From an uncultured Planctomycetaceae bacterium (lineage in GTDB: Bacteria; Planctomycetota; Phycisphaerae; SM23-33): a DNA stretch of 49,616 nt. A model generated the notes under the pieces. The model saw only the letters and a list, made by a program, of their open reading frames with translations. It did no database searches and was not told the DNA's origin. Positions 20,553-49,616 of this stretch are shown in pieces. A program made the translations under genes and the position numbers. The stretch covers positions 1-49,616 of the forward strand of contig CAZTVF010000027.1 in assembly GCA_964616985.1 (NCBI GenBank), given 5' to 3'. Within the stretch, counting starts at the first letter, position 1. Each line of letters begins with the position of its first letter.

Positions 20553-20554
20553 GG

Positions 20555-21148
20555 TCAGATGTGCTGCCGGCCGCCGCCGGTCAGCAGGTTGACCGCCTCG
20601 GTCCGCGTCGCCAGGTTGCTCTTGAAGGTGCCCCGCATGGCCGAGGTCACCATGACCGAGCCGGGCTTGCGGACGCCGCGGATGGTCATGCACGTGTGGG
20701 TGGCCTCGATGATGACGGCGGCGCCCTTGGCGTCCAGTTCGGTCATCATCAGGTCGGCGATCTGGCACGTCAGCCGTTCCTGCAACTGCGGGCGGCGGGC
20801 GAAGGTCTCGACGACCCGCGCGATCTTCGACAGTCCGCACACCTTGCCGCGCGGCAGGTACGCCACGTGCGCCTTGCCCATGAAAGGCAGCAGGTGGTGC
20901 TCGCACATCGAGTAGAACGGGATGTCGCGCAGGACGACCATCTCGTCGTACTGCTCCTGGAAGCCCACATCCAGGTGCCCCGCGGGATCCTCGCCCAGGC
21001 CCCAGAACAGCTCGGCATACATGCGGGCCACGCGCTGGGGCGTCTTCTTGAGCCCCTCTCGCTCTACGTCTTCGCCCACGGCCTGGAGGATCTGCCGCAC
21101 GGCGGCCTCGATGGCGGGCAGGTCGATGTCTTTTTTGAGTTCGGTCAT
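20555..21148 (-). CDS. folE: GTP cyclohydrolase I
   Basis: ...[18 protein letters not shown]...[14 protein letters not shown]... are FolE signatures. ATG at 21148 ([11 protein letters not shown]) is used. Confidence 0.85.
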
Positions 21149-22326: not shown

Positions 22327-22394
22327 GGGTGGCGGCCTTCCCAGGCCGCCACCAGGAACGCTGTGATGGCGGCGACCCGGGAAGGCCGCCACCC
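22327..22394. repeat. REP-like palindromic element (second full copy), located in the divergent intergenic region between the radical SAM and GT9 genes
   Basis: GGGTGGCGGCCTTCCCAGGCCGCCACC ... GGCGGCGACCCGGGAAGGCCGCCACCC. Confidence 0.55.
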
Positions 22395-22667
22395 CTGGCA
22401 TCGCGACTACACGACCCTAGTGTAAGATCCCCCCGTGCCTCAAACAAGGCGATGCCTTTTGCCGATAATTCGACTACGGGAATTCGCCGTCTGCAAGTAT
22501 GATCGTGGTGTCATCCATCGCCCGTTGTGTTTGGATTTCGCCGCGGCCCGCGGCCTTGCTCGCGGCGGCCTTTCCGTAACTCACCTCCTGGGACAACAGC
22601 GTTGAGTGAAGCGAAGACACCATCATCGCGGCCGTCGCCGGACCGCCGCGTCGGCCGCTTGGCGGCC

Positions 22668-23864: not shown

Positions 23865-25687
23865 GCAACGCCCAAGTCCGCAGGAAGTCGCCGCCCCCGC
23901 CCGCCGAGCTGCCTGCCCCCGATGGCGGCAGCGACGCCTTGCCCGCCTCCGGCCGGCGGCTGACCCGCGGCTGTCACATCGGGGCATGGGTGGCCTCGGT
24001 CGTCATCTTCTGCATCATGTGCAGCCTGAGCGACAAGGACGTCATCTGGCCCAACGACCACTTCAGCGACATGAACGTGCTGATGTCGGGCGAGAACTTC
24101 GCCAAGCATGGTTTCGCCAAGCTGCATTTCCTGCCGGTGCACTACGTCGGCGACATCGGCGATCACCCGCAGTATTACCTGCACTATCCCCCGCTGCCCA
24201 ACATCATCAACGGCCTGATGCAGTCGGCCGGGATTCATTCGCTCAGCGTCATGCGATGCTCCATGGCGTTCGTCTTCGTCGCGGGCCTCTTCTGCATTTA
24301 CTGGGCCCTGTGGCCGCGGGTGGGGCCGCTGACGGCGCTCTGCGCGATGATCTTCGCCGGGACGTGCTCGTACAGCATGAACCACGGCCTGAGCCTGCAC
24401 ACGCACGCGTACGACAACCTGTTCCTGGGGCTGTGGCTGCTGGTGTTCTTCCGCGCGATGGCCGGCGACCGCCCCCGCCTGATGTGGTCGGCGTGCTGGG
24501 CGATCCTGTTCACGCAGTCGCTGTTCACCTTCGAGTTCATCCCCTACGCGCAGATATTCATGTGGGTCTATGCCATCGCGACCCGGCGCCTTCGCACCCA
24601 TTGGCGGATGCTGCTCCTGCTCGCCTCGGCCCCGGTGGTCGGCGTGGGCCTGCACGTGCTGCAGAACATTCTCGCCGTCGGCTGGCAGGCGGTGGCGCAG
24701 GATTCGCTGGGCTCCGGCCAGTATACCGAGAAAAGCCGCTGGCTCCTGTACCTCCAACTGCCCGCGGACCTGGCCGACAAGACCGGGTTCATGTACTCCT
24801 TCCGCTGGCCGGTGCTGCTGGCGATGGGGCTGCTGTGGCTGGGCCTGTCGCGCCTGCGAAGTGCATGGGGCCTGCAACTGCGGCCGGCGGCGGCCATCTA
24901 TGTCGCCAGCCTCGCCGCGGCGATGGCGTGGTACCTCCTGCTGCCGGGGCACACGATCGCGCACACGCACACGGTGAACCAACTGCTGCTGCCGGCCAGC
25001 CTGGCCGTGGGCGGGTGCCTGGCGCTGCTGGTCCGATGGGCTGCCCAACCTGTTGTCGGAAAGATCGCCATTCGTCTCGCCGCCGCCTCGGCCATACTGG
25101 CCATCGGCCTCATGCAGGTGGCGTACTTCCGCGAGAACGTCAAGCTGTTCACGCTGCCGCACTTCATCGTTCTGGACGCCCTGGGGCGCTCGGCCGACCT
25201 GGCCCCCGACTCCGTGATCCTGTGCAACACGGGCGCCGAAGCGCAGGCGAGGTACTTCCTCCGCCGGCCGATGTGGCCGTTCCCCTCGCGCGAGCTGCGA
25301 TTCCCGGACGACCTCCCGCTCCTGCCCCAGCACATCTCGAGCCAATTCCGTAAGAAGTACTTCCTGCTCATGGGCCCAAGCGATCGATCGCTGCTGATGT
25401 ACCTGGCCACGAACTGCCGAGGGTACGCGACGAACGTGCCGACGCTTGAAAATCAGCACATCTTCCTCATCCTTTTTGAAATCGACGACCTGTACCTGCC
25501 GCCCGAGAAGCGCCGGGGCCTGGACCCCGCCACGCGCGAGGCGCAGCTTTCGGGGATGTTCGCCCCGTGGCAGATTCCGAATTTTGAGCAAGAGATGCGG
25601 CGGGCGTGTCAGCGGCAGTCGGGCAAGCTGCCCGAAGAGCCCAGCCGCTCAGCCGCCCACGCGGCCAGCCCGCTCAAACCGGGATGA
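23861..25687 (+). CDS. Polytopic inner-membrane protein (about 12 or more TM segments), possible GT-C-type glycosyltransferase or polysaccharide/O-antigen-related; function unknown
   Basis: There is ATGA translational coupling to the GT9 gene. Hydrophobic helices run throughout. The longer ORF from 23687 is rejected because it is out of frame with GT9 and has no RBS. Confidence 0.55.
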   Translation: MSNAQVRRKSPPPPAELPAPDGGSDALPASGRRLTRGCHIGAWVASVVIFCIMCSLSDKDVIWPNDHFSDMNVLMSGENFAKHGFAKLHFLPVHYVGDIGDHPQYYLHYPPLPNIINGLMQSAGIHSLSVMRCSMAFVFVAGLFCIYWALWPRVGPLTALCAMIFAGTCSYSMNHGLSLHTHAYDNLFLGLWLLVFFRAMAGDRPRLMWSACWAILFTQSLFTFEFIPYAQIFMWVYAIATRRLRTHWRMLLLLASAPVVGVGLHVLQNILAVGWQAVAQDSLGSGQYTEKSRWLLYLQLPADLADKTGFMYSFRWPVLLAMGLLWLGLSRLRSAWGLQLRPAAAIYVASLAAAMAWYLLLPGHTIAHTHTVNQLLLPASLAVGGCLALLVRWAAQPVVGKIAIRLAAASAILAIGLMQVAYFRENVKLFTLPHFIVLDALGRSADLAPDSVILCNTGAEAQARYFLRRPMWPFPSRELRFPDDLPLLPQHISSQFRKKYFLLMGPSDRSLLMYLATNCRGYATNVPTLENQHIFLILFEIDDLYLPPEKRRGLDPATREAQLSGMFAPWQIPNFEQEMRRACQRQSGKLPEEPSRSAAHAASPLKPG

Positions 25688-33934: not shown

Positions 33935-36544
33935 TCAGGCCATGTTGTGTTTCTTGCGGAGCATCCACTCAGCCGCCAGCAGCACCACGATCATCACCAG
34001 GGCGAGGTTGGTGTCCCAGATGAAGCGAGGCTCGTCGTGGATGCTCACGCCGCGGTCCACGGGAATCTCGCCCAGGCGGCCCAACTGGCCCAGGGTGAGG
34101 AAGTTCTCGGCCGGGTACGCCATCGCCTTCATGGCTGAGGCGTCGGCCTCGGTGCGGACGAACTCGGCCTGCGGGAGATCGATCTCGATCTGCTTGACGA
34201 TGGTGGATTCGTTGGCGTCGCCGTCGCCGGGGGCCGGCAGCAGCTTGAACGAGCCCTTGCGATCGACGGTGAAGTTGGCCTTGAAATGCCCGGGCTTCTC
34301 ATCGCCGACGGCGTTGGCGACGATCTTGCGGTCGAGGAGGTTCGTCGAGGCGTCGATCATCTGCACCTCGTACGACTTTTCCTTGCGCGGCTGGAACTTC
34401 TCGTCATAGGCCTCCACCTCAACGGTGATGGGCTCGCCGACGGAGAAGTTGTTGCCGCCGGTGGTGATGATCACTCGCCGGGCCTGCAGCGTCGCCAGGT
34501 ACCGCACGACGTTGGCCCAGAATCGCCGGTGGTACTGCCCGTCCTTGACGTAGCGCCACCGCCACGTGTCGTCGAAGCCGACGTACAGGACGTTGCCCTT
34601 GCCATAAGGCTGGGCGGCCACCAGGGGCAGGGGCTCGTTCTTGCCGCTCATGCGCCGCAGCGGGTTGGAGCTGACGGCCAGCGTGCGGGCGCCGGGCTTG
34701 CTCTTGTAGACCGGGTGGGCCCAGAACAGCCCGGGGAGGTTCGTCCAGACGTTCTGCGATTCCTCGGCCGTGCCGGCCATGCGCATCACCGGATGGTCCA
34801 TGCCGTACGAGGTCAACCGCAGCGGGTACGCCTCGGGCCGGCCCTCGGACAGGCGGGTGATCTCGTTGATCGCGTTGGGGGCCAGGCTCACCGGCAGCAT
34901 CTCGGCGAAGTCGGCGAATTCCTTCGCGCCTTCGCTGGTCAGCAGCGTGGTCTCGGCGTACTTGTTGCCGGCGATGAGGCACAGGCCACCGTTGTGCTCC
35001 TGCACGAAGGGCTTGAGCAGGTCCTTCACGAAGTGCTGATCGAAGCCCCCGCCCGCCGACGGCGAGGGATCGTACAGGATGATCACGTTGTAGCCGGGCT
35101 TGTTCTCATCGCCCGGCACGCCGATCAGTTCTTCGAGCGACTGCGGCAGCTGGGCCAGCTTCATCCCGTTGGAGGACGCCTGGTTGATGTCCTTGTCGGC
35201 GTTCTGCTGCCAGATGCTCGTGCGGTACAGGTCGGGCTGCTGCAGCAGGAAGTTGCGGAGGTACTGGAATTCCCACCCCGCGTCGCCGCTGACCAGCAGC
35301 ACGCGGATCTTCTCGTCGGCCACCGTCACCTGGGCCAACGAGGAATTGTCGGCGGTGTTCTGCTCGCCCACCAGGGGCTCGATGAGGGCGCGGTATTCGA
35401 AGTCGCCCAGTTCGTCGGGCTCCAGCTGCATCGACACGGCCTGCAGACCCTGGGCCGACTGGTTGGGGTCGCCGGTGGCCTCCAGCGTGGCGGCCTGCGA
35501 AACCACCCGCCCGTCGGCGCTGATGGCTTCCTTCCAGTCGGACTCGCCGATGGCCCGCTTCTGCAGCTTCACCGTCACCGACTCCCCGGCCATGTTGCGG
35601 TGGGCGACCATGGCGGTGAATTCCACGTTGGCGCCGCGGCGGGTTTCGCGCGGGGCCTGCAGGGCGGTCACGGCCACGTTGCGGGGCGGCGTGGACACGC
35701 CCACCGCCACCGAGTACAGCCGCACGCCGCGCTCGGCGACGTAAGCCATCGCGCTGGCGCGGCGGGTCTCGGCGCCCAGCGTGGTGATCTGGCCGTCGCT
35801 CAGGTGAATGATGACGGGGGCCCGCTGGCCTTCCATCAGTTCCATCGCGCTGCGCAGGGCCGAGGGCGGATTTGTCGAATAGCCCGACCGCGTCAGGCCG
35901 CCCAGGGCCTGGCGCACGCGGGCCGACGCCTCGTTGGGGTCGAACACGCCGCCCTCGGGCCGCACCATGTCGATCCGCGCCATCTCGCGGGTGTAGCCCT
36001 GCTGCGACTGGGTGGGCTGGGTCGTCGAATATCGCATGACCACCAGCGGATGGTCGGCGGCGAGTTTCACCAGCGGCCCGTCCTTGGCGGCTAGGGCCTG
36101 CACGATCATCTCGCCGCGGCTGAGGTCGGCCAGCTTCTCGGCCGGCACGTTCAGCATCCTCGCCAGTTCGTCACGCTGGGCGGCGAGGTTCGGCTCGTCA
36201 TACTTGTCTTTGAAGGACATGCTCTGGCTGTCGTCGATCAGCAGCACGACGCTGCTGCTGAGCGTCTTGACGAACCGCAGCACCACCGCCGGCTGGAAGA
36301 TGATGCCGAACACCAGCGCGATAATCAGAATTCGGAGGGTCGCCAGCGTGGCCTTGGCCCGGACGGGCGCCTCGCCCTCGCGCCGGTAGCTGCGGATCGT
36401 CAGCCACACCATGCCCGCCAGCAGCACCACCAGGGCGAAGTTGACGTACTCGTTGTACTCGGCCACGGCACGCAAGCGCCAGTCGCCGTGGGAGAAGATG
36501 TCTTCCACGTCCGAATTCAGCAGCCATTTCCACAAAGCTATCAT
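33935..36544 (-). CDS. Membrane-anchored von Willebrand factor A (vWA/MIDAS) protein, BatB-like, 869 aa
   Basis: An N-terminal TM precedes the MIDAS motif VVLLIDDSQSMSF. ATG at 36544 lies immediately after the TAA of the upstream gene (TAAATG). Confidence 0.7.
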   Translation of the reverse strand: MIALWKWLLNSDVEDIFSHGDWRLRAVAEYNEYVNFALVVLLAGMVWLTIRSYRREGEAPVRAKATLATLRILIIALVFGIIFQPAVVLRFVKTLSSSVVLLIDDSQSMSFKDKYDEPNLAAQRDELARMLNVPAEKLADLSRGEMIVQALAAKDGPLVKLAADHPLVVMRYSTTQPTQSQQGYTREMARIDMVRPEGGVFDPNEASARVRQALGGLTRSGYSTNPPSALRSAMELMEGQRAPVIIHLSDGQITTLGAETRRASAMAYVAERGVRLYSVAVGVSTPPRNVAVTALQAPRETRRGANVEFTAMVAHRNMAGESVTVKLQKRAIGESDWKEAISADGRVVSQAATLEATGDPNQSAQGLQAVSMQLEPDELGDFEYRALIEPLVGEQNTADNSSLAQVTVADEKIRVLLVSGDAGWEFQYLRNFLLQQPDLYRTSIWQQNADKDINQASSNGMKLAQLPQSLEELIGVPGDENKPGYNVIILYDPSPSAGGGFDQHFVKDLLKPFVQEHNGGLCLIAGNKYAETTLLTSEGAKEFADFAEMLPVSLAPNAINEITRLSEGRPEAYPLRLTSYGMDHPVMRMAGTAEESQNVWTNLPGLFWAHPVYKSKPGARTLAVSSNPLRRMSGKNEPLPLVAAQPYGKGNVLYVGFDDTWRWRYVKDGQYHRRFWANVVRYLATLQARRVIITTGGNNFSVGEPITVEVEAYDEKFQPRKEKSYEVQMIDASTNLLDRKIVANAVGDEKPGHFKANFTVDRKGSFKLLPAPGDGDANESTIVKQIEIDLPQAEFVRTEADASAMKAMAYPAENFLTLGQLGRLGEIPVDRGVSIHDEPRFIWDTNLALVMIVVLLAAEWMLRKKHNMA

Positions 36545-38869
36545 TTATTGCACCCGCCGGGAGCGGCTGGGCCCCCGCAAGTCTGTGTAGTGACCGAATC
36601 GCTGACCGAGGAAAATCTCCGCCGCCAGCAGTGCCAACACCGCACCAATGAAGTACATCCAATAGTCTTTGCGCGGGGCCGTGCGCGATTCCTCCGACGC
36701 CCCCGCCGTCGCCAGCATAGACCGATACTCGTAGTCCTCCGTGCCGAACGCCGCCGTGATGCCCGCCTGCGCGCCCGGCGCCAGGTCGCCCTCGGCCGGA
36801 TCGAGATTCCGGGCGAACAGCACCTGCGACTCATCCCCGCGCGGCTGGTGCAGCCGCAGCGTATAGACGCCCGCCGACCGCGGCCGCTCGTACCGCAGGG
36901 CGCGGCCCTCGGCCGCCCGCTCCAAGGGCACTTCCTCTTCCTTGGGGAACTTGGGCGTGATCATCGACGTGGTGGCGTCGGCCCATTCCTTCGCCGGCGT
37001 GTAGACGATGGGCTGATCGACCAGGGCGGTTCGCGGGCGGTCGCCGCGGCAGAGCTGCGTCACCAGGCCCATCATCGTGGTGGCGTACGTGCCGACGGGG
37101 TCGCTGGGCCAGTCGCACCAGCGGGCGCTGCCGGAGGAATAGAACATGACTACCTCGCCCTTGCCGAACGAACGCGTCGCGATGGCGGGCGAGTTGCCTG
37201 CGTCGGCAAAGCGGGCGGCCACGTGCGGCGGCCCCGCGTCGCCCGCGGCCAGGGCGGTCGTCTCGGCCGCGGCGGTGAACACCCAGAACCGCACCAGGCC
37301 GGTGAATGCGCCGCCCTCGCCCTGGAACTTCTCCAGGAAGCGGTCGGGGCCGATCGACTTGGGGTTCAGGCGGAAATACTCGCCCGAGGGATCGGCCTTG
37401 CCTTGCGGCGAGCCGATTCGGAACGGCATCAGGCCCGAGCCGGCCGACCACATGTGGTCGTTGTAGAACCGCAGGTCCATGTGGCTGCCGCTGAAGATGG
37501 CCAGGCCGCCGCCGCTGCGGACGAACCGCTCCAACGCCGCCAGCTGCGGGTACGCCGTGTGACGCTCATTCGCGTCGGCCGGACGCGTCGTCACCGCCGT
37601 GTCCTGCGGGAAGGCCGCCACGTTCATCAGCACCACCACGTCGTAGTCTTCGAAGTTGACCGACGCCAGCGCGTCCTCGGAAATCACGTCGGGCCGGCAG
37701 CCGTACGAGCCGCTGCGGCGAGGGTCCAGCGCGCGGGTGAAGAAGAACGATTCGCTCTCGGTCGGGTCGGCGGCGTCCAACTGCCCGTCGACCACCAGCA
37801 CCCGCATGTGCTCGCGGACTTCGAAGGCCGCGAATGCCGTGTTGTCGGCCGGAAGCTCATCCTCGCTCAGCGTGGCCGTGATCACCGCGGGCCCGGCGAA
37901 CGTGCAAGTGATTCGGCATTCGACGGTCTCGGCCTTGCCCGGATCAATCTCCTTGATCGTCAGCATCGGCAGCGAAACCTCTCGCTGGCCTTCCTTGGTG
38001 TTCATGCGGGCGGCCATGCGGATCTCGACGTCGGAGGCGAGGGTCGTGCCGTTGTTGCGGACGGTGATTTCCACCCGTATCGGGTCCTTCGCCAGCACCA
38101 TGCGGTCCAGCAGCTTGATCTCCTGCAGCGTGAGGTTGTTCTTCGGCGCTCGGCCGTAGTCCAGTGCGGTCAGCTCGACGCCGTCCTTCTTCAGGGCGGC
38201 GATCTGCTGGCGGATGGCGGCCATCTGGTCGGCCGAGGAAAGATCCACGCGGCGGAAGTCGCTGGCGATCACCAGCCGCTTGGGGCCCTGCACGTCCTGG
38301 AACTTCTGGGCGGCGGCGGCCAGGCTGTCGGCGAGGTTCATCCGCCCGCTGGCGGGCTCAAGGGTCCTGAGCTGCCCGGCGAGGGAGTTGGAGTCGGAGG
38401 CGAAATCGCGGCGGGCGTAGGCCCAACCCTCGCCGTCGAGGCGGCTGGAAAGCAGCACGGACATCTGCTGCGTCCCCGGGATGCGTGCGGCCTGCTGGGC
38501 CAGGTCGCCGGCGGCCGTGCTCAAGGCCGAGGAGGTGCCCACCTTTTGCCCCATCGAGGCGCTGTCGTCGAGGACGAAGACGGAGGTCATCGTCCCGCTG
38601 CCGGAGGTGGGCCCGACCGCCTGACCGGAGCAGCCGACGAAGCGTCCCAGGGCCATGCCCAGCAGGAGGATCACCATGCAGCGGATGGCCAGGAGGATCA
38701 GTTCCTCCAGGCGTAGTCGCCGGCGGTTCTTCCGCAGGGAGTCCAGGAGGAACTTCATCGCGGCCCAGTCGCGCACCTTGAACCGCCTGCGGTTGAGCAG
38801 GTGGATCAAGATCGGCACACTCACCGCCGCCAGTCCTGTCCAGAATATGATCGGATGTAAAAAGGGCAT
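36545..38869 (-). CDS. BatA-like protein: 'aerotolerance regulator N-terminal' double-TM domain plus vWA/MIDAS domain, about 774 aa
   Basis: MPFLHPIIFWTGLAAVSVPILIHLLNRRRFKVRDWAAMKFLLDSLRKNRRRLRLEELILL is the BatA_N signature. The MIDAS motif is SVFVLDDSASMGQ. ATG at 38869 is preceded by GAGGA. Confidence 0.7.
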   Translation of the reverse strand: MPFLHPIIFWTGLAAVSVPILIHLLNRRRFKVRDWAAMKFLLDSLRKNRRRLRLEELILLAIRCMVILLLGMALGRFVGCSGQAVGPTSGSGTMTSVFVLDDSASMGQKVGTSSALSTAAGDLAQQAARIPGTQQMSVLLSSRLDGEGWAYARRDFASDSNSLAGQLRTLEPASGRMNLADSLAAAAQKFQDVQGPKRLVIASDFRRVDLSSADQMAAIRQQIAALKKDGVELTALDYGRAPKNNLTLQEIKLLDRMVLAKDPIRVEITVRNNGTTLASDVEIRMAARMNTKEGQREVSLPMLTIKEIDPGKAETVECRITCTFAGPAVITATLSEDELPADNTAFAAFEVREHMRVLVVDGQLDAADPTESESFFFTRALDPRRSGSYGCRPDVISEDALASVNFEDYDVVVLMNVAAFPQDTAVTTRPADANERHTAYPQLAALERFVRSGGGLAIFSGSHMDLRFYNDHMWSAGSGLMPFRIGSPQGKADPSGEYFRLNPKSIGPDRFLEKFQGEGGAFTGLVRFWVFTAAAETTALAAGDAGPPHVAARFADAGNSPAIATRSFGKGEVVMFYSSGSARWCDWPSDPVGTYATTMMGLVTQLCRGDRPRTALVDQPIVYTPAKEWADATTSMITPKFPKEEEVPLERAAEGRALRYERPRSAGVYTLRLHQPRGDESQVLFARNLDPAEGDLAPGAQAGITAAFGTEDYEYRSMLATAGASEESRTAPRKDYWMYFIGAVLALLAAEIFLGQRFGHYTDLRGPSRSRRVQ

Positions 38870-38934
38870 TACGTCCTCATTCGGCGTTCTCGCGGCCACG
38901 GAGAGCACGGAGAAACGCGGAGAAAAACATGAGA

Positions 38935-39194
38935 CTAAAGAATCACTCGCTGCAGCCCGTCCACAAGTTTGTCCATGTTGAAATTCATCACCAGCGCCAC
39001 CTTTGCGCCAGCGGTTTTCAGGGTGCTGATCACCTGCACCAAGTCTCTAGGCCTCAGTGAATCGCCAAGGCCCTGTGCACTTTGATCGCAGCCCCGATGA
39101 TCCTCTGAGTCAGTTCCCAGTGCGGGTGGCTGTTCTCACGGCAATCCGCCGCCAGAACCTCCGCTCCCGCCTGCTGTAGATAACTCTTCGACAT
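38935..39194 (-). pseudogene. Decayed GxxExxY-family (TIGR04256-like) gene: N-terminal and C-terminal thirds retained, central core deleted and frameshifted
   Basis: One frame reads MSKSYLQQ...HWELTQRIIGAAIKVHRALAIH*. The +1 frame continues ...LRPRDLVQVISTLKTAGAKVALVMNFNMDKLVDGLQRVIL*. These match the conserved IIGAAIEVHR.LG start and the ...ILTYLK..G.RLGLLINFN..LKDGIKR end of GxxExxY proteins. About 60 central residues, including the eponymous motif, are missing. Confidence 0.6.
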
Positions 39195-39360
39195 CGTCCT
39201 GCTTTCCGTCTTCGCTTCTTCTCTCTGAGTTCTCTGAGCCTCTGTGGTCAGCTTCTTCTTCTTCTTCTTCTTTTGCTTATTCTTCTGCAGCTGTTGCTTT
39301 TGCTTCTTCTCTCCGCTTTCTCCGTGCTCTCCGTGGCCTTCCCGTGCTTTTGTGGTCAGC
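39195..39360. repeat. Low-complexity polypyrimidine/polypurine island containing a (CTT)7/(GAA)7 microsatellite and TGTGGTCAGC direct repeats; AT-richer than surroundings
   Basis: It contains cttcttcttcttcttcttttgcttattcttctgcagctgttgcttttgcttcttctc. tgtggtcagc occurs at 39244-39253 and 39351-39360. It lies between the DUF58 stop and the GxxExxY remnant. Confidence 0.6.
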
Positions 39361-40287
39361 CTATTTCCGTGCGCTGGCCTTGCGGAGGGCGGCGGCGCGG
39401 GCGGCGAGGAAGGAGAGCAACGCGGCGTCGAGGTGGTCGGCGGTGGAGACCAGCTTGTAGTCGATCCTGCCGGCGATGCAGCGGCGATTGACGTCGCGGC
39501 AGAAGTCATCCACGGCCTTGAGGTAGCCTTCGCGAAGAGCGCGGGGCTCGATGATGACCCGCCCCGCCTGTTCCAGGCCGCGGAACATCGTGTTGCCCTG
39601 GAACGGGAACGTCAGTTCGTCCTCGTCCATGATGTGCAGCACCATCACCTCGTGGTCGTAGTGGCGGAAGTGCTGCAGGCCCTTGATCAGGCCCTCGATG
39701 TCCGTGAACAGGTCGCTGATCAGGCACACCAGGCCGCGGCGGCTGATCTTCTCGGCCAGGGAATGGCAGATCGGCTCCAGCGAGGTCTTGGCCCGGGGCG
39801 TCTGAAGGTCCAGGGCGTGCACCATCGTCTTGATCTGGTTGGGATTCGCCGAGGCCGGCAGGTACGCCTTCAGTTCCTCGTCGAAGACGGCCAGGCCGAC
39901 GGCGTCCTGCTGCCTCAGCAGCAGCATGGACAGCGAGGCCGCCACCGCGCAGGCGTAGTGGTACTTGGTCATGGCGTCGCGGCCGTCGCGGCGATAGAGC
40001 ATGGACTCGCTCGCGTCGACGATGAACGTCGCCTTGAGGTTGGTCTCCTGCTCGTACTGCTTGATGTAGTAACGGTCGGTCTTGGCCTGCACCTTCCAGT
40101 CGAGGTGCTTGAGATCGTCACCGGGCACGTACTCGCGGTGCGTGGCGAATTCGATCGAGAACCCGTGGAAGGGGCTGCGGTGCAGGCCGGAGATGAAGCC
40201 TTCGACCACCTGCCTGGCCAGGAGGTCCAGGCGGGTGATCTTCGACAGCACCCGCGGGTCGAGATACTTCTGTAATTCGTTACTCAT
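39361..40287 (-). CDS. DUF58-domain protein (degenerate vWA-fold, MoxR partner), 308 aa
   Basis: YVPGDDLKHLDWKVQAKTDRYYIKQYEQETNLKATFIVDASESMLY is the DUF58 hallmark. ATG at 40287 is used, with an in-frame TAA 15 nt upstream. Confidence 0.8.
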   Translation of the reverse strand: MSNELQKYLDPRVLSKITRLDLLARQVVEGFISGLHRSPFHGFSIEFATHREYVPGDDLKHLDWKVQAKTDRYYIKQYEQETNLKATFIVDASESMLYRRDGRDAMTKYHYACAVAASLSMLLLRQQDAVGLAVFDEELKAYLPASANPNQIKTMVHALDLQTPRAKTSLEPICHSLAEKISRRGLVCLISDLFTDIEGLIKGLQHFRHYDHEVMVLHIMDEDELTFPFQGNTMFRGLEQAGRVIIEPRALREGYLKAVDDFCRDVNRRCIAGRIDYKLVSTADHLDAALLSFLAARAAALRKASARK

Positions 40288-40326
40288 CGTTTGGCTTACT
40301 CGTTAACTGGTTAACTCGTTAACTCG
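40279..40326. repeat. 8-nt periodic array TTACTCA/TTACTCG/GTTAACTG/GTTAACTC/GTTAACTC spanning the DUF58 start codon and 5' leader
   Basis: GTTAACT occurs at 40302, 40310 and 40318, with TTACTC variants at 40280 and 40295. The array is AT-rich within a GC-rich genome. Confidence 0.55.
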
Positions 40327-40463
40327 TGGTCGGCCGCTCGGTCGTCTGTGGCGCGCCCCGGGGGCCCGCCGGCCATGGACCGCGCGGCGGCCTGTGCCGG
40401 CGCCGCGACCCATGCGTGTGGGCAGGCGGCGGCCCGGCAAGGCCGCCGCCCGCACGTGCTGCC

Positions 40464-41519
<1,056 letters not shown>

Positions 41520-41533
41520 TCAATTCTCCTTCG

Positions 41534-42676
41534 TCATCTCTGGTAAATGGGGAGGTATCCGTAGGGAAGCTGCAGAATCACCGTCGCCATGGCGGTGCCG
41601 TACGTGGTGCCCACGCTATCGCCGTCCCAACTGCCGTCGGCGGCCTGCATGCTCAACAACTTGTTGCGAATCTTGGGGTAGTACTCGGCCCAGTCCTTCC
41701 CGCCGTGCTGGTACATGCCCTGGGCCATGTAGTACTGCGTGTAGAACCAGTGGCCGTCGTTGGTGTCGGGGAAGGCCGACTTCTTCACGTAGGCCAGGAG
41801 CTTGTCGACCATCTCGGCCTCGACGCCCTTGCCGCCGGCCTGGCGGTCGTAGATGCCCGCGGCGTAGAAGCAGGCGATGGCGGCGGCCGAAATCGCCGGG
41901 CGGCTGGAGCCCTTGGAGGCGAACGAGTAGCAGATGCCGCCGTCGGCCATCTGGCAGGCCTTGAGGTACAGCACCGCCCGCTCGATGGTGCTCTTGGGGA
42001 CGCTGATGCCCGCGTTGCGGCACGCGCGAAGGGCCTGCAGCTGCGTCACGGTCACGCTGCCCTCGTCGCTCTTGCCGTCGGGGGTGTAGATCCACCCGCC
42101 CGCGTGCTTGAGGTTGGGCCCCAGGTCCGACTGTGCCTTGGCCGTGAGGGCGACGGCCTTGTCCAGGGCCTTCTTGATGCGCTTCTCGTTCTCGGTGTTC
42201 ATCTCGATGCCGTAGCACTGGGCCAGGAACAGCATGGCGAAGCCGTGCCCGTACATGCTGCGGCTCTCGGCGCCGGGGCCGGCGATCATGCCGTCGTCCT
42301 GCGCCTCGGCCACGTTGAGGATGTAGTTCATGGCCCGCGTGACTTCCTTGGCGTACGTGCCGCTTTCGGGGGTCGAGCCGTTGGCCATCAGCGACAGGCC
42401 CGCCAGGGACGTCATCACGCTGGGGTACACGCCATAGCCGCCGCCGTTGAGCCACGCCCCGTTGTTGCGCTGCGTCTGGGCGAGGTAGCCGATACCGCGG
42501 TCGATGGCCTTGACCGTCTTCTCGTCCATCATGTCCGGCAGGACGGGCCCCGGGGCCGCCGCCTGCACCGGCGGCGTGCGGACCAGCATCGTGCCCACGG
42601 TGACGGACAGGGCCACAAAGCCCACCATCAACGCCGGGCCGATGAGTCTTCGGTTGTCTCGGTTACGGTGCGCCAT
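41534..42676 (-). CDS. Secreted prenyltransferase/squalene-oxidase-repeat (terpene-cyclase-like alpha/alpha-toroid) protein, 380 aa
   Basis: A signal/anchor LIGPALMVGFVALSVTVGTMLV is present. Three QW-type motifs appear (QRNNGAW, QMADGGICY, QAADGSWDG). Its ATG overlaps the giant gene stop by 14 nt. Confidence 0.7.
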   Translation of the reverse strand: MAHRNRDNRRLIGPALMVGFVALSVTVGTMLVRTPPVQAAAPGPVLPDMMDEKTVKAIDRGIGYLAQTQRNNGAWLNGGGYGVYPSVMTSLAGLSLMANGSTPESGTYAKEVTRAMNYILNVAEAQDDGMIAGPGAESRSMYGHGFAMLFLAQCYGIEMNTENEKRIKKALDKAVALTAKAQSDLGPNLKHAGGWIYTPDGKSDEGSVTVTQLQALRACRNAGISVPKSTIERAVLYLKACQMADGGICYSFASKGSSRPAISAAAIACFYAAGIYDRQAGGKGVEAEMVDKLLAYVKKSAFPDTNDGHWFYTQYYMAQGMYQHGGKDWAEYYPKIRNKLLSMQAADGSWDGDSVGTTYGTAMATVILQLPYGYLPIYQR

Positions 42677-45600
42677 AGATCACCACGCCTTCATTGGTTT
42701 CGATGGCCAGCCGGCCGTTCGTCATCACCGGCGGACCCAGGGGTATCGCGGTCATTCCGTTCATCATCATGAATTGGCGGTTTCCCATCCGCCCCATCCT
42801 CAGGGCGTTGGCCGCTGCCACGTTGTCCGCGCCGCCCTTGCGGGCGACGGCGATCTTCGAGGCGATCTTGCCGGTCTGCACGTCCAGCACGTACACCATG
42901 TCTTCGCCGGTGCCCGTGGTGACGGCGACGGCCACGTGCGTCTGGCCGGCCACCGGCGGCGTCACGAGCAGGTTGGCGTTGTTGCCCACCACCTCGCTCA
43001 CCCAGGCGTACTTCTTGCGTTCGAGGTCCACCTTGGCCACCCAGAGCCCCATGAAAGGCCGCACCGTGCCCCACTGCCGCGGATCGGCAAACTGCGAACT
43101 GCAGGCGATGTAGGCCGAGCTGCCGTCGAAGACGGCGTAGATCGGCGTGATCTCGCCGCCTGAACCGGCCGTGGGCGCCGGCAGCGAGACCAGCGGTTCT
43201 TTGCCGGCCGTCACCGAGCAGATGTCGACCCGGCGGGAGTTGAAGGTGAAGGCGGCGTAGTCGGGGCTGACGCCCAGGATGGTGGGCGCGCTGTTGGCGT
43301 TGTCGTACGTCCGGCTCCACAGGGGCTTGGAGACCTGCCCCGGGTCCAGCGCCGTGACCTTGTTGTCGCTGCACACGATGGCCACGCCCGTGGGCGTGAA
43401 GCAGCCGACGGAACTGGCCTGGCCCTGGAAGGTCTGAATGATGCGGCCCTTCTGGGCCACGTCCAGCAGCGTCACCTGCCGCATCGAGGAGTGGCGGATC
43501 ATGACCAGCCCCCCGCCCACCTGCGGGGGCGTCATCATGGGGTTGCCCACCGCCAGTTGAACCTGGTTCCAGAGCACCTCGCCGGTGGCCATGTCGATGC
43601 AGATGATCCGCCCCACGCCGTCGGCCAGGGCCAGCAGGCCGTCGCCGGTGCCCATGAGGCAGTTGCCCTGCGCGCCGACGGCAGGCTCGGCCAGCGTGCG
43701 GGCCCACTTGGCCTTGGCCGTCCGCAGGTCGTAGCCGCGGATGCCCTCGTTGCTGGCGATCGTCAGCACCTTCTGATCTTTGCTCAGGGCGGCGATGGCG
43801 CCGGTGCCCAGGCCCGAGAAACCGCCCTGCCGCAGCGCGTCCGAAGTGATCGGCGACAACCCCTGCCAGCTGACGGCCGAGGCGGCGTCGCGGGCCTGCG
43901 TGTCGGCCATGATCGCGTGGTTGTTGCTCAGGACCAGGATGCGGTCGCCCAGCCGCAGGGGCTGGTAGTTCTGATCGCGGAGGATGCAGGTATTGTCCTT
44001 GGTCATCTCGAAGATCTTGGTCAAGGGCATTCGCAGCATCGCCGGCAGGCGGGCCTGGCGGACGGGGCCCTCGTGGGGGCCCTGCAGCTTGGTGAGGACG
44101 GTCTCCAGCGACCCCTGCAGATCGCCGAAGGCGACCTGGATGTCGGCCTCGGAGGCGGCCATGCCGGCGGCCTCGCGGGCGGCGTCGCAGTGATAGTTCA
44201 TCGTGCCGCGCTGGTTGTTGCGGCCGTAGACGGCCGCCAGGCCCACGTGAGCGTTAACGCGAAGGGCCCGCTCGACGGTCTCGGCCGTCAGGGGGGACAG
44301 CAGCGGCACGATTTGGGACAACGACCGGTCGGCCTGCTCGGGGGCCTCTTCCAGCGAGCGGCGGTAGAGCAGTTCGCCGGCGAGCAGGCGGGCGTTGTCG
44401 GACCACAGGCTGTTGGGCCAGCGGCGCGAGATGTCGGCCATCGCGTTGGCGTCGTTGGCGGCGCGGGCGCCATCCAGGGCCTCCTTGGCCTGCGCGTCGT
44501 AGGCGGCGTAGATCTGCTGGCCGTGCGTCTGCAGCAGGTCGCGAATGAGATTCTCGCCCAGGCGCGAGCCGACGATGTACTCCACCGACGGCCCCATCAG
44601 GGCGTTCTCCTGGCCGGGGCCGATCTCGACGTCGGCCAGCTCGGTCGAGCCGAACTGCTCGCGAAGCTCCTGTGCCAGCTGCACCGCCAGCGTCGCCTCG
44701 GTGATCTTGGCCTGGCGGAGCTTGGCCGCCTCGGCCGCGTCGGCGACCTTGTCCCTGTCGATGGCGGCCGCAATCTGGTCGGCCCGCAGGCGGTGGAACT
44801 TGGCCAGGCGCACCTTCATGTGCCCCTTCTCCTGGGGCGTCGCCGCGACGCTGTCGGCCAGGAGGTAGTTCTGCTCCATCGCGTTGGGGTCGGTGCCATG
44901 GTCGGCCAGCGCGACATACGTGCGGTAGAGCATGGTCTCGATGCGGGCGATCTTGACGTTGCCGTCGGGGGCGGCGATTTCCTTGGCGGCCAGCAGGTCG
45001 GCCAGGCACTCGCTGAAGTTGCGGCTGCTGAAGGCGAGCTGGGCCCGCGAGAGCAGCAGGTCGGGCTTGTTCTTGGCCGGGGCGGCCTCGAGGCGTTCAC
45101 TCAGGCGGCTGCGGGCGTCGGCATAGTTGAGGTAGCCGCACAGGCCGCCGGCGTTGGCGGCGATCAGCTGCCCGCGGACGCTGAGCAGGTTGCCCAGCAT
45201 GCCGGCGGCCCCGTCGCCGGCCACCAGCGGCAGAGGCTTGCTGGGATAGTTCGGGTCGGTGAGGTCCACGCGGATCAGCCGGCCCGAACCGCTGGCCAGG
45301 ATCGCCGAAGGCGTGACGGCCGGCCGCCCCACCACGGTTTCAGACGAGCCCACGGGCTTGCGGCCCATGTCGGTCAGCGAGACGATCTCCATCGAGGGGC
45401 CGCTGAGCAGCACGCGCGACGTATCGATGGCCGTCAGATCCCTCTTGCCCGAACGCTCCATCTGCTTGAGCAGCGTGCCGTCGTCGGCGGACAGGACCAG
45501 CAGAGTCTGGCTGTCGGCGGGCAGGGCGACAACCTTCGAACCGGCGACGATGATGGGATTGCCGGGGTAGCCCGGTCCCGGGTTGGGGTTGTAGCCCATG

Positions 45601-47396
45601 TTGGGGTTGTTCAACATGCCATGGGGGCTGTCGTACTGGTAGGCCCAGGCGGGCTGGCCGGTGTCGGCCTCGAAGGCGGCGACCACGCCGGCATTGGTTG
45701 CGACATAAACGCGGCCGTCGGCCACGGCCGGAGGGCTGCCCCGGTGGGGCGCCGGGTCGTAACCGTAATTCGGCGTCGGGGGCGGCGTCTGGCAGACCAT
45801 CGCCTGCCACTGCAGCGAGCCGTTGGCGGCGTCGAGGCACAAGAGCTGATAGTTGCCCGCGTAGGCCACGACGGTGTACAGGCGGCCCGCGTCGTAGGTC
45901 GGGGCACACATGTAGCGGCAGCCGCGGACGATCTCGTCCTTGCCCACGCCCTGTCCCAGGCGCCACACCTGCTTGAGCTGGCCCTTGAGCGACAACGCCA
46001 CCAGGTCCGAGGTGTCGCCCGCGTCGTTCCCGTCGCGGCGGCCGCCGTAGTTCTGCGTCGAGGCGCGGTAATTCGCCAGGGCGAATACCTTGCCCTCGGC
46101 CAGCGTCAACGTATAGCGGCCGGTGTCTACAGGCGCTTGCATGTTGCCGTAGTAGCCGCCGTAGCGCTCGGAGCTCTTGTTCTCCCGCTCCAGCGGAAGG
46201 TTCACGGTGATCCACCGCTGCTCGCCGGTGACCAGGTCGCAGGCGACGACCGCGTCGTCGCGACGATAGATCACCACGTCGCCGTAGACGACCGGCTGCA
46301 CCAGCGGCGCCATCGTGAAGCCCGACTGCGAACTGCCGTTGCCGCTGAAGCCCACCGAGACGTGGCCGTTCTTGAGGTTGATCGCGACGCGCTGGTTGGG
46401 GTTATTGCTCGCCTTGAAGGTCTGCCCCATCGCCACCAGCGAGAGCTTGCCCACCTCGACGGGCGGGTTCTGCCAACGCGGCGAGAGCACCACGTTGCTC
46501 TCGCCCATCAGGCCCTGGCCCATCTTCTGGGCGCCCAGGCCGCCCCACTCGTCGGCCGACGCCACCGGCGGCGCCGTCACCGGCGGCATCTTCGCCACCT
46601 CGGCGAGGAAGTCGCTGATCTTCTGCAAACGCCCGGCGATCTTCGCCTCGGCGGCGGCGTGCTTTTCCGACAACTCCTTGGCCACCTCGGCCGCCTTGGC
46701 GGCCTGGCCGCTGAGATGATAGGCGGCGTAGAGCTTGGCCAGCAGCACCGGCCGCTCCAGGCTGCTGTTGCGACGGTCCAGCGCCAGGCGCCAGAAGCGC
46801 GACGCCTGTTCCACCTTGCCCGCGTCGAACAGGATACTGCCGATGATGTTCAGCGTCTTGCCGCCGTAACTGCTGTTGGCGTACCGCATGGCGACTTGCC
46901 GCAGGAGCCCCAGGTCGGAATTGGCCACGCCCTGGTTGTACAACTGCTCCGCCTGCGGATCGTACATCTGGCGGTACAGGGCCAGGCCGTCCTCGGGCAT
47001 CGAGCCGATGATCTCGTTGGCCTTGGCCACGAAAGAGACGTACCGCTTGCCGTCGTCGGCGATCAGCTTGCCCTCGGACTTCTCGGCCAGGGCCTGGAGG
47101 TACTCGATCGCCTTGAGGTATTCCTTCTGCTGGATGAAGTCCTGCGCCTTCTTGACCAGCGCCGCCCGCTCTTCATCGACGTTCACCAGGGGGATGGGCT
47201 TGCTGGTATCGGGCTTCTTGGGCGTGCTGACGCGGACCTGCCCGAGGCACAAGCCCCCTGCCGTCAATAGAACGGCGGCAACGATGGACGCAATGCGAAT
47301 TCTGCCGGTAGTCAATAGCCTACCCCCGCCCAAGGCTGCGGCCTTGGAGCTTGGTGTGAGGACAGGGTCGTTTATCTTCGCCTTCTTTACTGCCAA
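42663..47396 (-). CDS. Giant (1577 aa) membrane-anchored multi-beta-propeller protein with PQQ/BamB-like repeats and a central TPR-like alpha-solenoid; first gene of the supra-operon
   Basis: An N-terminal TM IASIVAAVLLTAGGLCLG is present. Recurrent propeller motifs appear (DLVTGEQRW, AANGSLQWQA, ADTGQPAWAY, MATGEVLWNQ). The putative TTG start at 47396 is preceded by GGAAGG. The antisense 1259-aa ORF is compositional junk. Confidence 0.7.
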   Translation of the reverse strand: MAVKKAKINDPVLTPSSKAAALGGGRLLTTGRIRIASIVAAVLLTAGGLCLGQVRVSTPKKPDTSKPIPLVNVDEERAALVKKAQDFIQQKEYLKAIEYLQALAEKSEGKLIADDGKRYVSFVAKANEIIGSMPEDGLALYRQMYDPQAEQLYNQGVANSDLGLLRQVAMRYANSSYGGKTLNIIGSILFDAGKVEQASRFWRLALDRRNSSLERPVLLAKLYAAYHLSGQAAKAAEVAKELSEKHAAAEAKIAGRLQKISDFLAEVAKMPPVTAPPVASADEWGGLGAQKMGQGLMGESNVVLSPRWQNPPVEVGKLSLVAMGQTFKASNNPNQRVAINLKNGHVSVGFSGNGSSQSGFTMAPLVQPVVYGDVVIYRRDDAVVACDLVTGEQRWITVNLPLERENKSSERYGGYYGNMQAPVDTGRYTLTLAEGKVFALANYRASTQNYGGRRDGNDAGDTSDLVALSLKGQLKQVWRLGQGVGKDEIVRGCRYMCAPTYDAGRLYTVVAYAGNYQLLCLDAANGSLQWQAMVCQTPPPTPNYGYDPAPHRGSPPAVADGRVYVATNAGVVAAFEADTGQPAWAYQYDSPHGMLNNPNMGYNPNPGPGYPGNPIIVAGSKVVALPADSQTLLVLSADDGTLLKQMERSGKRDLTAIDTSRVLLSGPSMEIVSLTDMGRKPVGSSETVVGRPAVTPSAILASGSGRLIRVDLTDPNYPSKPLPLVAGDGAAGMLGNLLSVRGQLIAANAGGLCGYLNYADARSRLSERLEAAPAKNKPDLLLSRAQLAFSSRNFSECLADLLAAKEIAAPDGNVKIARIETMLYRTYVALADHGTDPNAMEQNYLLADSVAATPQEKGHMKVRLAKFHRLRADQIAAAIDRDKVADAAEAAKLRQAKITEATLAVQLAQELREQFGSTELADVEIGPGQENALMGPSVEYIVGSRLGENLIRDLLQTHGQQIYAAYDAQAKEALDGARAANDANAMADISRRWPNSLWSDNARLLAGELLYRRSLEEAPEQADRSLSQIVPLLSPLTAETVERALRVNAHVGLAAVYGRNNQRGTMNYHCDAAREAAGMAASEADIQVAFGDLQGSLETVLTKLQGPHEGPVRQARLPAMLRMPLTKIFEMTKDNTCILRDQNYQPLRLGDRILVLSNNHAIMADTQARDAASAVSWQGLSPITSDALRQGGFSGLGTGAIAALSKDQKVLTIASNEGIRGYDLRTAKAKWARTLAEPAVGAQGNCLMGTGDGLLALADGVGRIICIDMATGEVLWNQVQLAVGNPMMTPPQVGGGLVMIRHSSMRQVTLLDVAQKGRIIQTFQGQASSVGCFTPTGVAIVCSDNKVTALDPGQVSKPLWSRTYDNANSAPTILGVSPDYAAFTFNSRRVDICSVTAGKEPLVSLPAPTAGSGGEITPIYAVFDGSSAYIACSSQFADPRQWGTVRPFMGLWVAKVDLERKKYAWVSEVVGNNANLLVTPPVAGQTHVAVAVTTGTGEDMVYVLDVQTGKIASKIAVARKGGADNVAAANALRMGRMGNRQFMMMNGMTAIPLGPPVMTNGRLAIETNEGVVIYGAP

Positions 47397-47554: not shown

Positions 47555-47974
47555 TTGCGGATTGAGGAGGCCAGGGGACCACGGACTGGCCAAGAGGATT
47601 GGGCGCGCGACGGCTCCGCGCCATACACAAAGGCGACCAGATCATGGGGCTGACGCTGGCCATCCGAGAAAGCACTACCATTCTGTCTATCGCTAGAGCA
47701 TCATCATGATGCGTTCGTTTGTGGCACAGAGGCAGACAGAGGCAGGACATGGCCTGCAACAAGTCACGCGGAAGACGCAGTTGCCGTCAAATGCGGCTGC
47801 CCCATTTGGAGTGCGGCGGCAACGACGCCGCTATGGATTCAGGCGCCGGTGCGTGCGATAAATCCAAAGCGGTGTCGCGGCCGCTGCGCGGCCTCTGCCA
47901 CCGCACTCCAAAAGGCCGCCGCACGGCATACGTGCATCGGTTCTTTTGCTTCTACAATATAAGGAACCGCCGCC

Positions 47975-48502
47975 GTGCGATGTGCGTCGATCGTCATCTT
48001 CTGTGCTTCGCTGCTGGCCGCCCTGGCGGCGGCACAGGACGCGTCCCGCCCGGCCTCGGCAACCAAGGAGCCAATGACCATGCCCCAGACGCTTGCCGCA
48101 ACCACCCAGCAGGCCCATGCCCTGCGGGCGGGACCGTTGAGAATGAAGCTGCAGGACGGCCAGCTCAGGTACATCTGCCTGGGCAACCGCGAACTGGTGC
48201 GGCGGGTCTACTTCGCCGTCCGCGACAAGGACTTCGACACCCCGCCGGCCGTCTTCTCGCAGATGGACGTGCAGGCGCGGGCCGACTCGTTCACCGTCCA
48301 ATTCGCCGCCACCTGCCACAACGACCATTCCGACTTTGCGTGGAAAGGCAGCATCGAGGGCGACGCCAACGGCCGCATCGTCTTTCGGATCGACGGGGCG
48401 GCGACGCGCGATTTCCGCTCCCCCCGCATCGGCATCACCGCGCTGTACGGCAATGCCGCCGTGGGCGGGTACAAGTTCTTCCGCCAGGCCGCCGGGGCCT
48501 AG
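47975..48502 (+). CDS. Secreted hypothetical protein, N-terminal part (175 aa), terminated by a TAG that is in frame with the next ORF
   Basis: A GTG start is preceded by AAGGAA. A signal peptide MRCASIVIFCASLLAALAAAQDA is present. TACAAT lies 17 nt upstream of the RBS. Confidence 0.5.
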   Translation: MRCASIVIFCASLLAALAAAQDASRPASATKEPMTMPQTLAATTQQAHALRAGPLRMKLQDGQLRYICLGNRELVRRVYFAVRDKDFDTPPAVFSQMDVQARADSFTVQFAATCHNDHSDFAWKGSIEGDANGRIVFRIDGAATRDFRSPRIGITALYGNAAVGGYKFFRQAAGA

Positions 48503-48505
48503 GTC

Positions 48506-49486
48506 GTGAAGGAAGGCCGCAAGCAGACGCTTGGCGAACGGCTGACGATGGCTGAGTTCCCCCGCCTGGCCGCCCCGCCGCTGTGGGACCTGGGCAACTG
48601 GTTCCGCACACTGCGATACCAGGATGACCGCGGCACGATCGTGCAGGCGACGATCAACGGCGGCTACGCCGGCATCGAGGACCAGCGGAACTACGGCGAC
48701 AGCTCGTACAAGCTCTACGGCTACCTGCCGTACGATTATCCCGCCGTCACCGCCGGCACGAAGATGGCCCAGGAGGCGGTGCTGGAGATCATCGACGCCA
48801 ATGCCGCCGCGGCGGCCGGCGAGATCGAGACCGTCACGCAAGTGCTGGTGGAGGGGGTCGTGGGCGACTCGAAGATGCCCGCCCTGCTGCCGCTGGCCCG
48901 CGCGCCGAAACCGCGGGATTTCGTCGCCGTCAACGATGCCGACAAGTACGGCTCGGCCGCCGAGATCGCGTGGCGATTCAACCCCGCCGCCCATCTCAAT
49001 GACGACGACATGCTGATGGAGAACATCCCGGCCGTGCTCGACCAGGTGCTCACGGTCCGCCAGTGGGCGCCCAAGGCGAGGATCACCATCGGGCCCAATT
49101 CATTCCATTGGCACCATCCCGGCCGCCCTGTGGACGCGCGAAACAGCACGCAGTTCGGCGCGGCGTGGTGTGCGGCCCTGTGGAAATACCTGGCCCTGGC
49201 GAGCGTGGACGAGGTGGCGTTTGACGTGGGCCCCGGCCCCGCCGATGCCGTGCAGCAATCGCTGGGGGCCCTGGCCGGCCGGCGGCTGCACCACGTCGCC
49301 ATCCGCGGCCCGCTTCCCCGGCCGGTGGAGGCCTTCGCCGTGGCCGCCCCCGCGGGTGTGGCGCTGTGGCTGGTGAATCTCACCGACGCGCCCCAGCCGG
49401 TCGAGATCCCCTCCATCCCCGCCGGCCTCGCCCCCAAGAGCCTCACGCTCCAGCCGTACGAGGTCAAGACGGTGATGGTGCCTTGA
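48506..49486 (+). CDS. Hypothetical protein, C-terminal part (326 aa); same reading frame as 47975-48502 and separated from it by only TAG+GTC
   Basis: Composition is protein-like (W/Y/N/D/K-rich). It has no convincing RBS of its own. It is followed by a REP element. Confidence 0.5.
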   Translation: MKEGRKQTLGERLTMAEFPRLAAPPLWDLGNWFRTLRYQDDRGTIVQATINGGYAGIEDQRNYGDSSYKLYGYLPYDYPAVTAGTKMAQEAVLEIIDANAAAAAGEIETVTQVLVEGVVGDSKMPALLPLARAPKPRDFVAVNDADKYGSAAEIAWRFNPAAHLNDDDMLMENIPAVLDQVLTVRQWAPKARITIGPNSFHWHHPGRPVDARNSTQFGAAWCAALWKYLALASVDEVAFDVGPGPADAVQQSLGALAGRRLHHVAIRGPLPRPVEAFAVAAPAGVALWLVNLTDAPQPVEIPSIPAGLAPKSLTLQPYEVKTVMVP

Positions 49487-49508
49487 GTTTGTCCGTGGGG
49501 TCATTCAA

Positions 49509-49576
49509 GGGGTGGCGGCCTTCCCAGGCCGCCACCACAGCCGTCTGCAGGTGGCCGCCTCGGAAGGCCGCCACCC
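49509..49576. repeat. REP-like palindromic element (third full copy), immediately 3' of the last gene
   Basis: GGGGTGGCGGCCTTCCCAGGCCGCCACC ... GTGGCCGCCTCGGAAGGCCGCCACCC. Confidence 0.55.
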
Positions 49577-49616
49577 CTCACTTGACGGCAGACAGAGCAC
49601 TGGTCGTCACGAACAA

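Follow-up and report, generated by a model that had tools for sequence, protein, structure and literature searches.

A putative apionate-lactonase-like gene cut by one in-frame TAG in an uncultured planctomycete, probably by a very recent nonsense mutation

Close to the end of the 49,616-nt stretch of contig CAZTVF010000027.1 that was analysed here (assembly GCA_964616985.1, an uncultured Planctomycetaceae bacterium; hereafter the window, with 67% GC), two open reading frames follow each other in a shared frame, namely 47975-48502, with 175 amino acids, a GTG start, and a TAG stop, and 48506-49486, with 326 amino acids and likewise a GTG start. Their sole separator is the TAG at 48500-48502, and the coordinates and description that the first-pass annotation of this DNA had given for the pair proved correct against the sequence, the ORF list, and the translation. 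Translated from end to end, 47975-49486 contains exactly one internal stop, preceded by FRQAAGA and followed by VVKEGRKQ, and no second stop or frameshift was found in that translation. Both parts also carry the codon-position GC pattern of real genes, with a GC3 of 0.88 in the 5′ part and 0.90 in the 3′ part, which bears out the earlier remark that the two halves have a protein-like composition, unlike the antisense ORFs. The latter do not have the coding GC3 pattern, and a genuine antisense gene over the TAG was dropped on this ground. In the public records, the gene callers have left two separate “hypothetical proteins” in place of the gene, one of 140 or 175 amino acids and one of 326; the 326-aa product beginning at GTG 48506 (P0001) and the shorter N-terminal call of 140 aa from ATG 48080 (P0023) are each recorded by NCBI and by Logan. 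The features of the locus are collected in Table 1.

Table 1. Features in and around the interrupted gene, in window coordinates.
Feature	Position	Strand	Remarks
Shine-Dalgarno-like AAGGAA	47961..47966	+	9 nt upstream of GTG 47975; motif scan and sequence
5′ part of the gene	47975..48502	+	175 codons and the premature TAG; signal-peptide-like N-terminus and first half of the beta-rich N-terminal domain
Putative Sec signal peptide	47975..48034	+	MRCASIVIFCASLLAALAAA, followed by QD; recognised by eye in the translated sequence; valid only with GTG 47975 as start
Alternative start region	48065..48082	+	AAGGAG 48065-48070, ATG 48074, ATG 48080; motif scan
Premature in-frame TAG, codon 176	48500..48502	+	GAG (Glu) in the syntenic orthologue
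3′ part of the gene	48503..49486	+	327 codons and TGA stop; second half of the beta-rich domain, alpha/beta middle region, C-terminal beta-sandwich
GTG one codon past the stop	48506..48508	+	gene callers’ start for the 326-aa product; possible re-initiation codon
REP-like palindromic hairpin pair	49508..49578		immediately behind the gene; inverted repeat I1 with arms of 29 nt, 93% complementary

The neighbourhood of the gene is seen on one side only, with the contig ending 130 nt downstream of it, and the neighbours on that side are a giant PQQ-propeller protein, a squalene-hopene-cyclase-like protein, and a MoxR-DUF58-BatA/VWA operon. Carbohydrate-active genes are abundant in the window (GH106-like, PL8, GH29-like/fucosidase-like, GH116, and NPCBM), and a carbohydrate-related role of the encoded protein is plausible.

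The region 47975-49486 is a single gene with one interrupting in-frame TAG, as had been proposed at first reading, and both homology and synteny back this. The NCBIfam model NF049900 (D-apionate lactonase ApnL) matches the two halves collinearly, at profile positions 11-134 for the 5′ half (E 2.8e-20) and then at 147-263, and when they were joined as a conceptual read-through protein, with Glu substituted at the stop, a single alignment ran across the stop from residue 43 to residue 304 (profile 11-262, 117.8 bits, E 5e-34). A search of 5.8 billion protein clusters returned 17 full-length homologues, with lengths of 431-559 aa and a coverage of the joined query of 84-100%, and the junction is continuous in all 17 of them in the resulting alignment (A1). 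Likewise, a scan of the GTDB species representatives gave 78 distinct loci, none of them above 43% identity and hence no close orthologue, from the Planctomycetota (Tepidisphaerales, Phycisphaerae), Lentisphaerota/Victivallales, Verrucomicrobiota, Armatimonadota, Acidobacteriota, and others, and the frame is uninterrupted in every one of the 51 loci whose match covers both halves. Orthologues with two separate genes and a conserved start for the second, which the first-pass annotation had named as the finding that would speak against a single gene, were therefore encountered neither among the 17 proteins nor among the 51 spanning loci. One GTDB locus (L035) was considered as interrupted and dropped, given that its apparent internal stop sits upstream of its start codon. 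The closest homologue, P0002, with 473 aa as called and 62% identity, is encoded on the Logan contigs L002 and L003, from the runs SRR26084408 and SRR26084409, and has the same giant gene (~1580 aa) divergently upstream as in the window, so that we take it as the syntenic orthologue.

The protein that the uninterrupted gene would encode, of about 500 aa, is best explained as a member of an “apionate-lactonase-like” superfamily, with a predicted beta-supersandwich followed by an alpha/beta region and a C-terminal beta-sandwich. The AlphaFold2 (AF2) model built on alignment A1 (mean pLDDT 85.7, pTM 0.85) has a disordered segment at residues 1-44 (pLDDT <50), consistent with a leader, and then a continuous beta-rich region from residue 48 to about 295, an alpha/beta region at about 320-430, and a beta-sandwich at 438-502. 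Compared with the PDB by Foldseek, the first domain resembles the galactose-mutarotase-like supersandwiches (E ~1e-8 to 1e-6 over ~290-335 columns), with matches to LacZ domain 5, GH36, GH97, galactose mutarotase, and the aldose-epimerase-like Slr1438. The likeness to LacZ domain 5, to the N-terminal domains of GH36 and GH97, and to the aldose 1-epimerases lies in this beta-supersandwich, whereas the identity to them is only 7-13% and the query-normalised TM-scores are low (0.25-0.35), with one domain matching. A sequence search of the PDB with the family profile gave nothing meaningful.

As to the name of the family, D-apionate lactonase ApnL is reportedly an enzyme of the D-apiose catabolic pathways of Carter et al. 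2018, and our literature search on apionate lactonase and ApnL returned nothing usable. What the window protein has in common with ApnL is the N-terminal stretch of ~260 residues aligned to NF049900 as given above, which supports an N-domain relationship, together with precomputed matches to the three domains Apionate_lact_N, M, and C (PF25837-PF25839). These precomputed matches exist for both pieces and for all homologues, with M marked weak; the 5′ part matches Apionate_lact_N and the 3′ part Apionate_lact_N/M/C. A local Pfam hmmscan with the halves, the joined protein, and the homologues gave no Apionate_lact match, the models being probably absent from that copy. In contrast to ApnL, the window protein has ~450 aa without its leader against the 595 positions of the model, it carries a probable signal peptide, and no apiose or sugar-acid catabolic genes lie beside it on the one side that the contig covers. 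Moreover, the read-through protein and P0002 reach 117.8 and 111.7 bits, respectively, against a curated cut-off of 750, and identity with ApnL as defined by this equivalog was thus rejected, also because apiose/apionate catabolic neighbours are lacking. Judged by these scores, the protein is a distant ApnL relative of a distant paralogous subfamily, and not ApnL itself.

The start codon of the gene bears directly on its presumed export. An AAGGA motif stands 9 nt before GTG 47975, at a spacing similar to that of the AAGGA found by the motif scan before several other window genes, and the N-terminus read from this GTG is signal-like, so the “strong RBS” and signal peptide of the first reading do have a basis; however, ATG 48080 has the better motif, AAGGAG, also at a 9-nt spacing, and a start there yields the 140-aa N-terminal piece without any signal peptide. 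The “secreted” label is accordingly qualified by the ambiguity between these two starts. In the orthologue on L002, too, the called ATG follows AAGGAG at a spacing of 9 nt, and upstream of that called start there is an in-frame hydrophobic stretch that is signal- or lipobox-like, ARGFMLFGILALSLAAASCSQ, which supports export. Leader-like N-terminal extensions are present in some family members and absent in others, and many members of the family have no signal peptide. Taking the sequence features together, the protein is likely exported. For the second ORF, the motif scan found no Shine-Dalgarno-like motif before GTG 48506, in agreement with the earlier observation that it has no RBS, but the accompanying statement that it has no plausible independent start was slightly overstated, since this GTG exists and the recorded 326-aa product begins there.

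It is in the orthologue where the probable ancestral codon can be read. In the codon alignment, L002/P0002 has GAG (Glu) exactly at the position of the window’s TAG, so that one G>T transversion explains the stop; the alignment to orthologues that had been proposed as a check on the first reading has thus produced a sense codon one substitution away. The flanks of codon 176 are conserved as G-G/A-x-(E or stop)-V-V-K, with the flanking Val-Val-Lys kept, and GTG 48506 aligns to the Val-Val pair within the continuous ORF of the orthologue. The codon falls inside a 13-aa insertion that only the window protein and P0002 have in common, and the ancestral GAG is for this reason drawn from one orthologue. 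In the AF2 model, residue 176 lies in a hairpin of lower confidence (170-190, pLDDT 68-73) within the first domain and not between domains.

The gene shows no sign of decay on either side of the stop. Among the other 17 sequences there are 40 invariant columns, and the window sequence keeps all 40 of them, 23 in the N-terminal half and 17 in the C-terminal half, as well as 26 of the 27 nearly invariant columns. Against the orthologue, the dN/dS by the Nei-Gojobori method (NG86) is 0.50 upstream and 0.40 downstream of the stop, and so is no higher behind it, as rough values given that the GC3 bias depresses dS. Purifying selection has therefore acted on the downstream part during practically the whole time of divergence. 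This leaves a lesion of very recent origin, continued expression of the gene, or an erroneous base, and the absence of decay fits a recent lesion and a still-expressed gene (through leaky read-through or re-initiation at GTG 48506) equally well.

We favour, with a probability of roughly 0.6, a very recent GAG>TAG nonsense mutation that has left a young pseudogene or null allele of a probably exported ApnL-like protein. The first reading had offered a recent nonsense mutation, a sequencing error, and programmed read-through side by side; our results favour the first and disfavour the third, and the second may still hold as an error at the level of the reads. In the proposed course of events, a single G-to-T transversion would have turned codon 176 from GAG (Glu) into TAG, within a lineage-specific surface insertion in the middle of the N-terminal beta domain. 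Ribosomes would stop there and free a fragment of 175 aa, or of 140 aa if ATG 48080 is the start, and this fragment, amounting to half a fold domain, would probably be unstable. The remaining 327 codons would stay untranslated, or would be weakly re-initiated at GTG 48506 to give a product without a signal peptide. Since the stop falls inside a fold domain, the 175-aa product is presumably non-functional, and the net effect would be a loss of function. The lesion may be fixed in the strain or may be a variant still segregating in the population, and we call it very recent on the ground that the gene shows no other damage. With the known nonsense pseudogenes and null alleles, the locus shares one in-frame stop where all relatives read on without a break, a sense codon at the orthologous position that a single substitution separates from TAG, and a split by the gene callers into two “hypothetical proteins”; it differs from them in having zero secondary lesions, which would place it among the very youngest pseudogenes or among alleles that are not fixed.

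The weight of this reading depends on whether the T itself is real. A sequencing or consensus artefact would mean that the organism has GAG and an intact gene, the T having come from low-coverage read errors, for example through oxidative (8-oxoG) G>T damage to the library as it was prepared, or from a minor variant that the assembler had picked. G>T is a typical 8-oxoG library artefact, and the change seen here is a single transversion of precisely this class, in an otherwise flawless gene on what is presumably a metagenome-assembled contig. The other window genes that were examined all look intact, so that the contig as a whole is neither error-ridden nor decaying, and by the same token the lone lesion stands out. 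Nevertheless, the Logan contig L001 (run SRR12261224, 1605 bp) is identical to window positions 47883-49487, the T of the TAG included, so k-mers with the T are present in the reads. L001 comes from a different assembly pipeline, possibly working on the same underlying reads, and the T was thus not introduced by one assembler. The consensus of short-read assemblies, moreover, seldom carries substitution errors. The T is probably real in the organism, beyond the reads, and we consider an artefact or a minority variant unlikely. The search for an intact allele gave only the two pieces of the window gene in a junction-centred protein search of imperfect recall (P0002 was missed too), no match in the JGI metagenomes for an exact DNA pattern that left the mutated base open as N, and nothing in a protein-based scan of the same metagenomes; no intact allele and no other copy was thus found in the protein collection or in the JGI metagenomes, and a polymorphism was likewise not demonstrated. 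Besides L001, one further similar place is on record.

If the nonsense allele is real, the gene might still be working, either as two polypeptides, with a restart of translation at GTG 48506, or by way of some full-length protein from basal near-cognate read-through of the UAG, or the TAG might even be decoded by design. For programmed recoding, in which a suppressor tRNA, pyrrolysine, or context-stimulated read-through would decode the TAG and so regulate the amount or form of the protein, the bare facts of a lone in-frame TAG with an undamaged frame behind it are what can be put forward, and these it does share with the known cases of UAG recoding. Unlike those cases, the stop here is not conserved, with GAG in the sole orthologue, continuous frames in the other relatives, and no relative that has a stop at this codon. 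TAG is a normal stop in the window, where it terminates ~9 of ~27 genes, about a third; this confirms the earlier point that it is a genuine stop elsewhere, made from the flotillin gene (Band_7, 10116-11669), to which we can add the PL8 lyase, NPCBM, and DUF58 genes. In some of the TAG-ended genes, the Pfam domain ends within a few residues of the stop, and in the NPCBM gene, only 2 residues before it. None of the other window genes contains an in-frame TAG; the same-frame pairs 13653/12729 and 36545/33935 were tried as in-frame-stop cases and dropped, as each consists of two separate genes that have an ATG start of their own and differ in their domains, and so was the pair 22527-23864/23861-25687, which is an ordinary ATGA stop-start overlap. 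There are also no tRNA genes in the window, no stimulatory RNA structure after the TAG (the ~120 nt of 48490-48610 fold no better than shuffles, z = 0.53), and no relevant Rfam family match near the stop. Programmed read-through is thus poorly supported and already largely refuted, and we hold it to be extremely improbable.

A gene that goes on working in spite of a real nonsense allele is quite unlikely too. Close stop-start spacing favours re-initiation, and here the GTG starts three bases after the TAG; the stop falls in a variable insertion of lower confidence where any inserted residue should be tolerated, nothing downstream has decayed, and, with many family members having no signal peptide, a cytoplasmic form would not be absurd. 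On the other hand, the stop halves one beta-supersandwich domain, no relative is split at this point, and a recent lesion explains the lack of decay just as well. If GTG 47975 is the start, the signal peptide would be on the first piece only, so that the pieces would be sorted to different compartments; a re-initiated C-terminal piece of an exported protein would stay in the cytoplasm, and this, together with the missing Shine-Dalgarno motif before GTG 48506, argues against a working split protein. Very improbable in our estimation is a deliberate retention of the TAG, in which re-initiation at GTG 48506, or else a regulated read-through of the UAG, would give two products from one former gene. 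In that case, an exported half-domain fragment would be accompanied by a cytoplasmic remainder or by the full-length protein, and the locus would represent a gene fission in its beginnings, or an expression switch based on a nonsense codon, in an uncultured bacterium that degrades polysaccharides.

Most likely, then, the recent nonsense mutation is an ordinary and already known phenomenon, the usual recent knockout and not a new translation mechanism, and only under the unlikely read-through or split readings would it bear on recoding or translation biology. Its main value is one of annotation hygiene, in that the recorded pieces ought to be merged into a single entry and marked as an interrupted gene. 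Should the T prove real and still segregate, it would also serve as a population marker for an exported carbohydrate-related protein that has lately been lost from a genome with many genes for glycan degradation.

Just behind the gene lies the hairpin pair of Table 1. Its core, GGTGGCGGCCTTCC, is repeated as inverted pairs at other sites of the window (19 matches, where 1.3 would be expected); these hairpins are probably a terminator or a repeat element and not part of the lesion.

The interrupted ApnL-like gene (a distant relative of D-apionate lactonase) and its syntenic orthologue on the Logan contig L002 both carry, 3' of the signal-peptide-like stretch, a perfect AAGGAG motif that is read in frame as AAG-GAG (Lys-Glu) and lies 9 nt 5' of an internal ATG. 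This arrangement could provide dual starts and, with them, an exported and a cytoplasmic isoform of the same protein, or, alternatively, it may merely mislead gene callers. We also found a homologue, P0024 (277 aa, from an ENA contig of 9325 bp), which has Apionate_lact_N as its sole domain match and aligns at 38% identity over 99% of the 240-aa query centred on the junction at the premature TAG, suggesting that the mutarotase-like domain may elsewhere also occur as a stand-alone protein.

The change seen at 48500, in this TAG, belongs to the G:C>T:A class, the one suppressed by MutY. Given this role of MutY, and since the MutY-like gene of the window appears intact, that gene gives no hint of a mutator background.

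The long array divergent from the interrupted gene is a Bat/MoxR-type cluster. Its members encode a PQQ/BamB-like beta-propeller protein of 1577 aa, a protein resembling squalene-hopene cyclases, a MoxR AAA+ ATPase, DUF58 and BatA/VWA proteins, and one more VWA protein. The giant propeller gene and the ApnL-like gene form a pair that is also kept in L002 and in L003, a second Logan contig encoding the orthologue. The divergent intergenic region upstream of the interrupted gene is long (578 bp) and holds an inverted repeat, within which the Logan contig identical to the gene region starts (47883); this region and the 290-bp spacer of the orthologue share no conservation.

Elsewhere in the window, an apparent frameshift in the stop-to-stop ORF map was rejected, the ATGA overlap there being that of an ordinary coupled gene pair, made up of a GT9 heptosyltransferase-like gene upstream and an ORF without a Pfam match downstream.

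Coordinates of the features discussed
Feature	Position	Strand	Remarks
In-frame AAGGAG + internal ATG	48065-48082		L002: about 5016-5036
MutY-like adenine glycosylase gene	19476-20906	-	HhH-GPD + NUDIX_4
Same-strand gene array	33935-47396	-	
ATGA stop-start overlap	23861-23864		links 22527-23864 to 23861-25687
Inverted repeat	47802-47915		20 nt, 90% complementary, spacing 74 nt
REP-like element	12608-12674		
REP-like element	22328-22393		
REP-like element	49508-49578		
REP-like element, further site	369-382		
REP-like element, further site	11826-11839		
REP-like element, further site	37609-37622		

A REP-like palindromic element with the core GGTGGCGGCCTTCC has 19 matches in the window at up to 2 mismatches, against 1.3 expected, and forms exact inverted pairs, with about 50 nt between copies, within or close to intergenic regions. 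One such pair lies directly 3' of the stop of the interrupted gene, near the end of the Logan contig.
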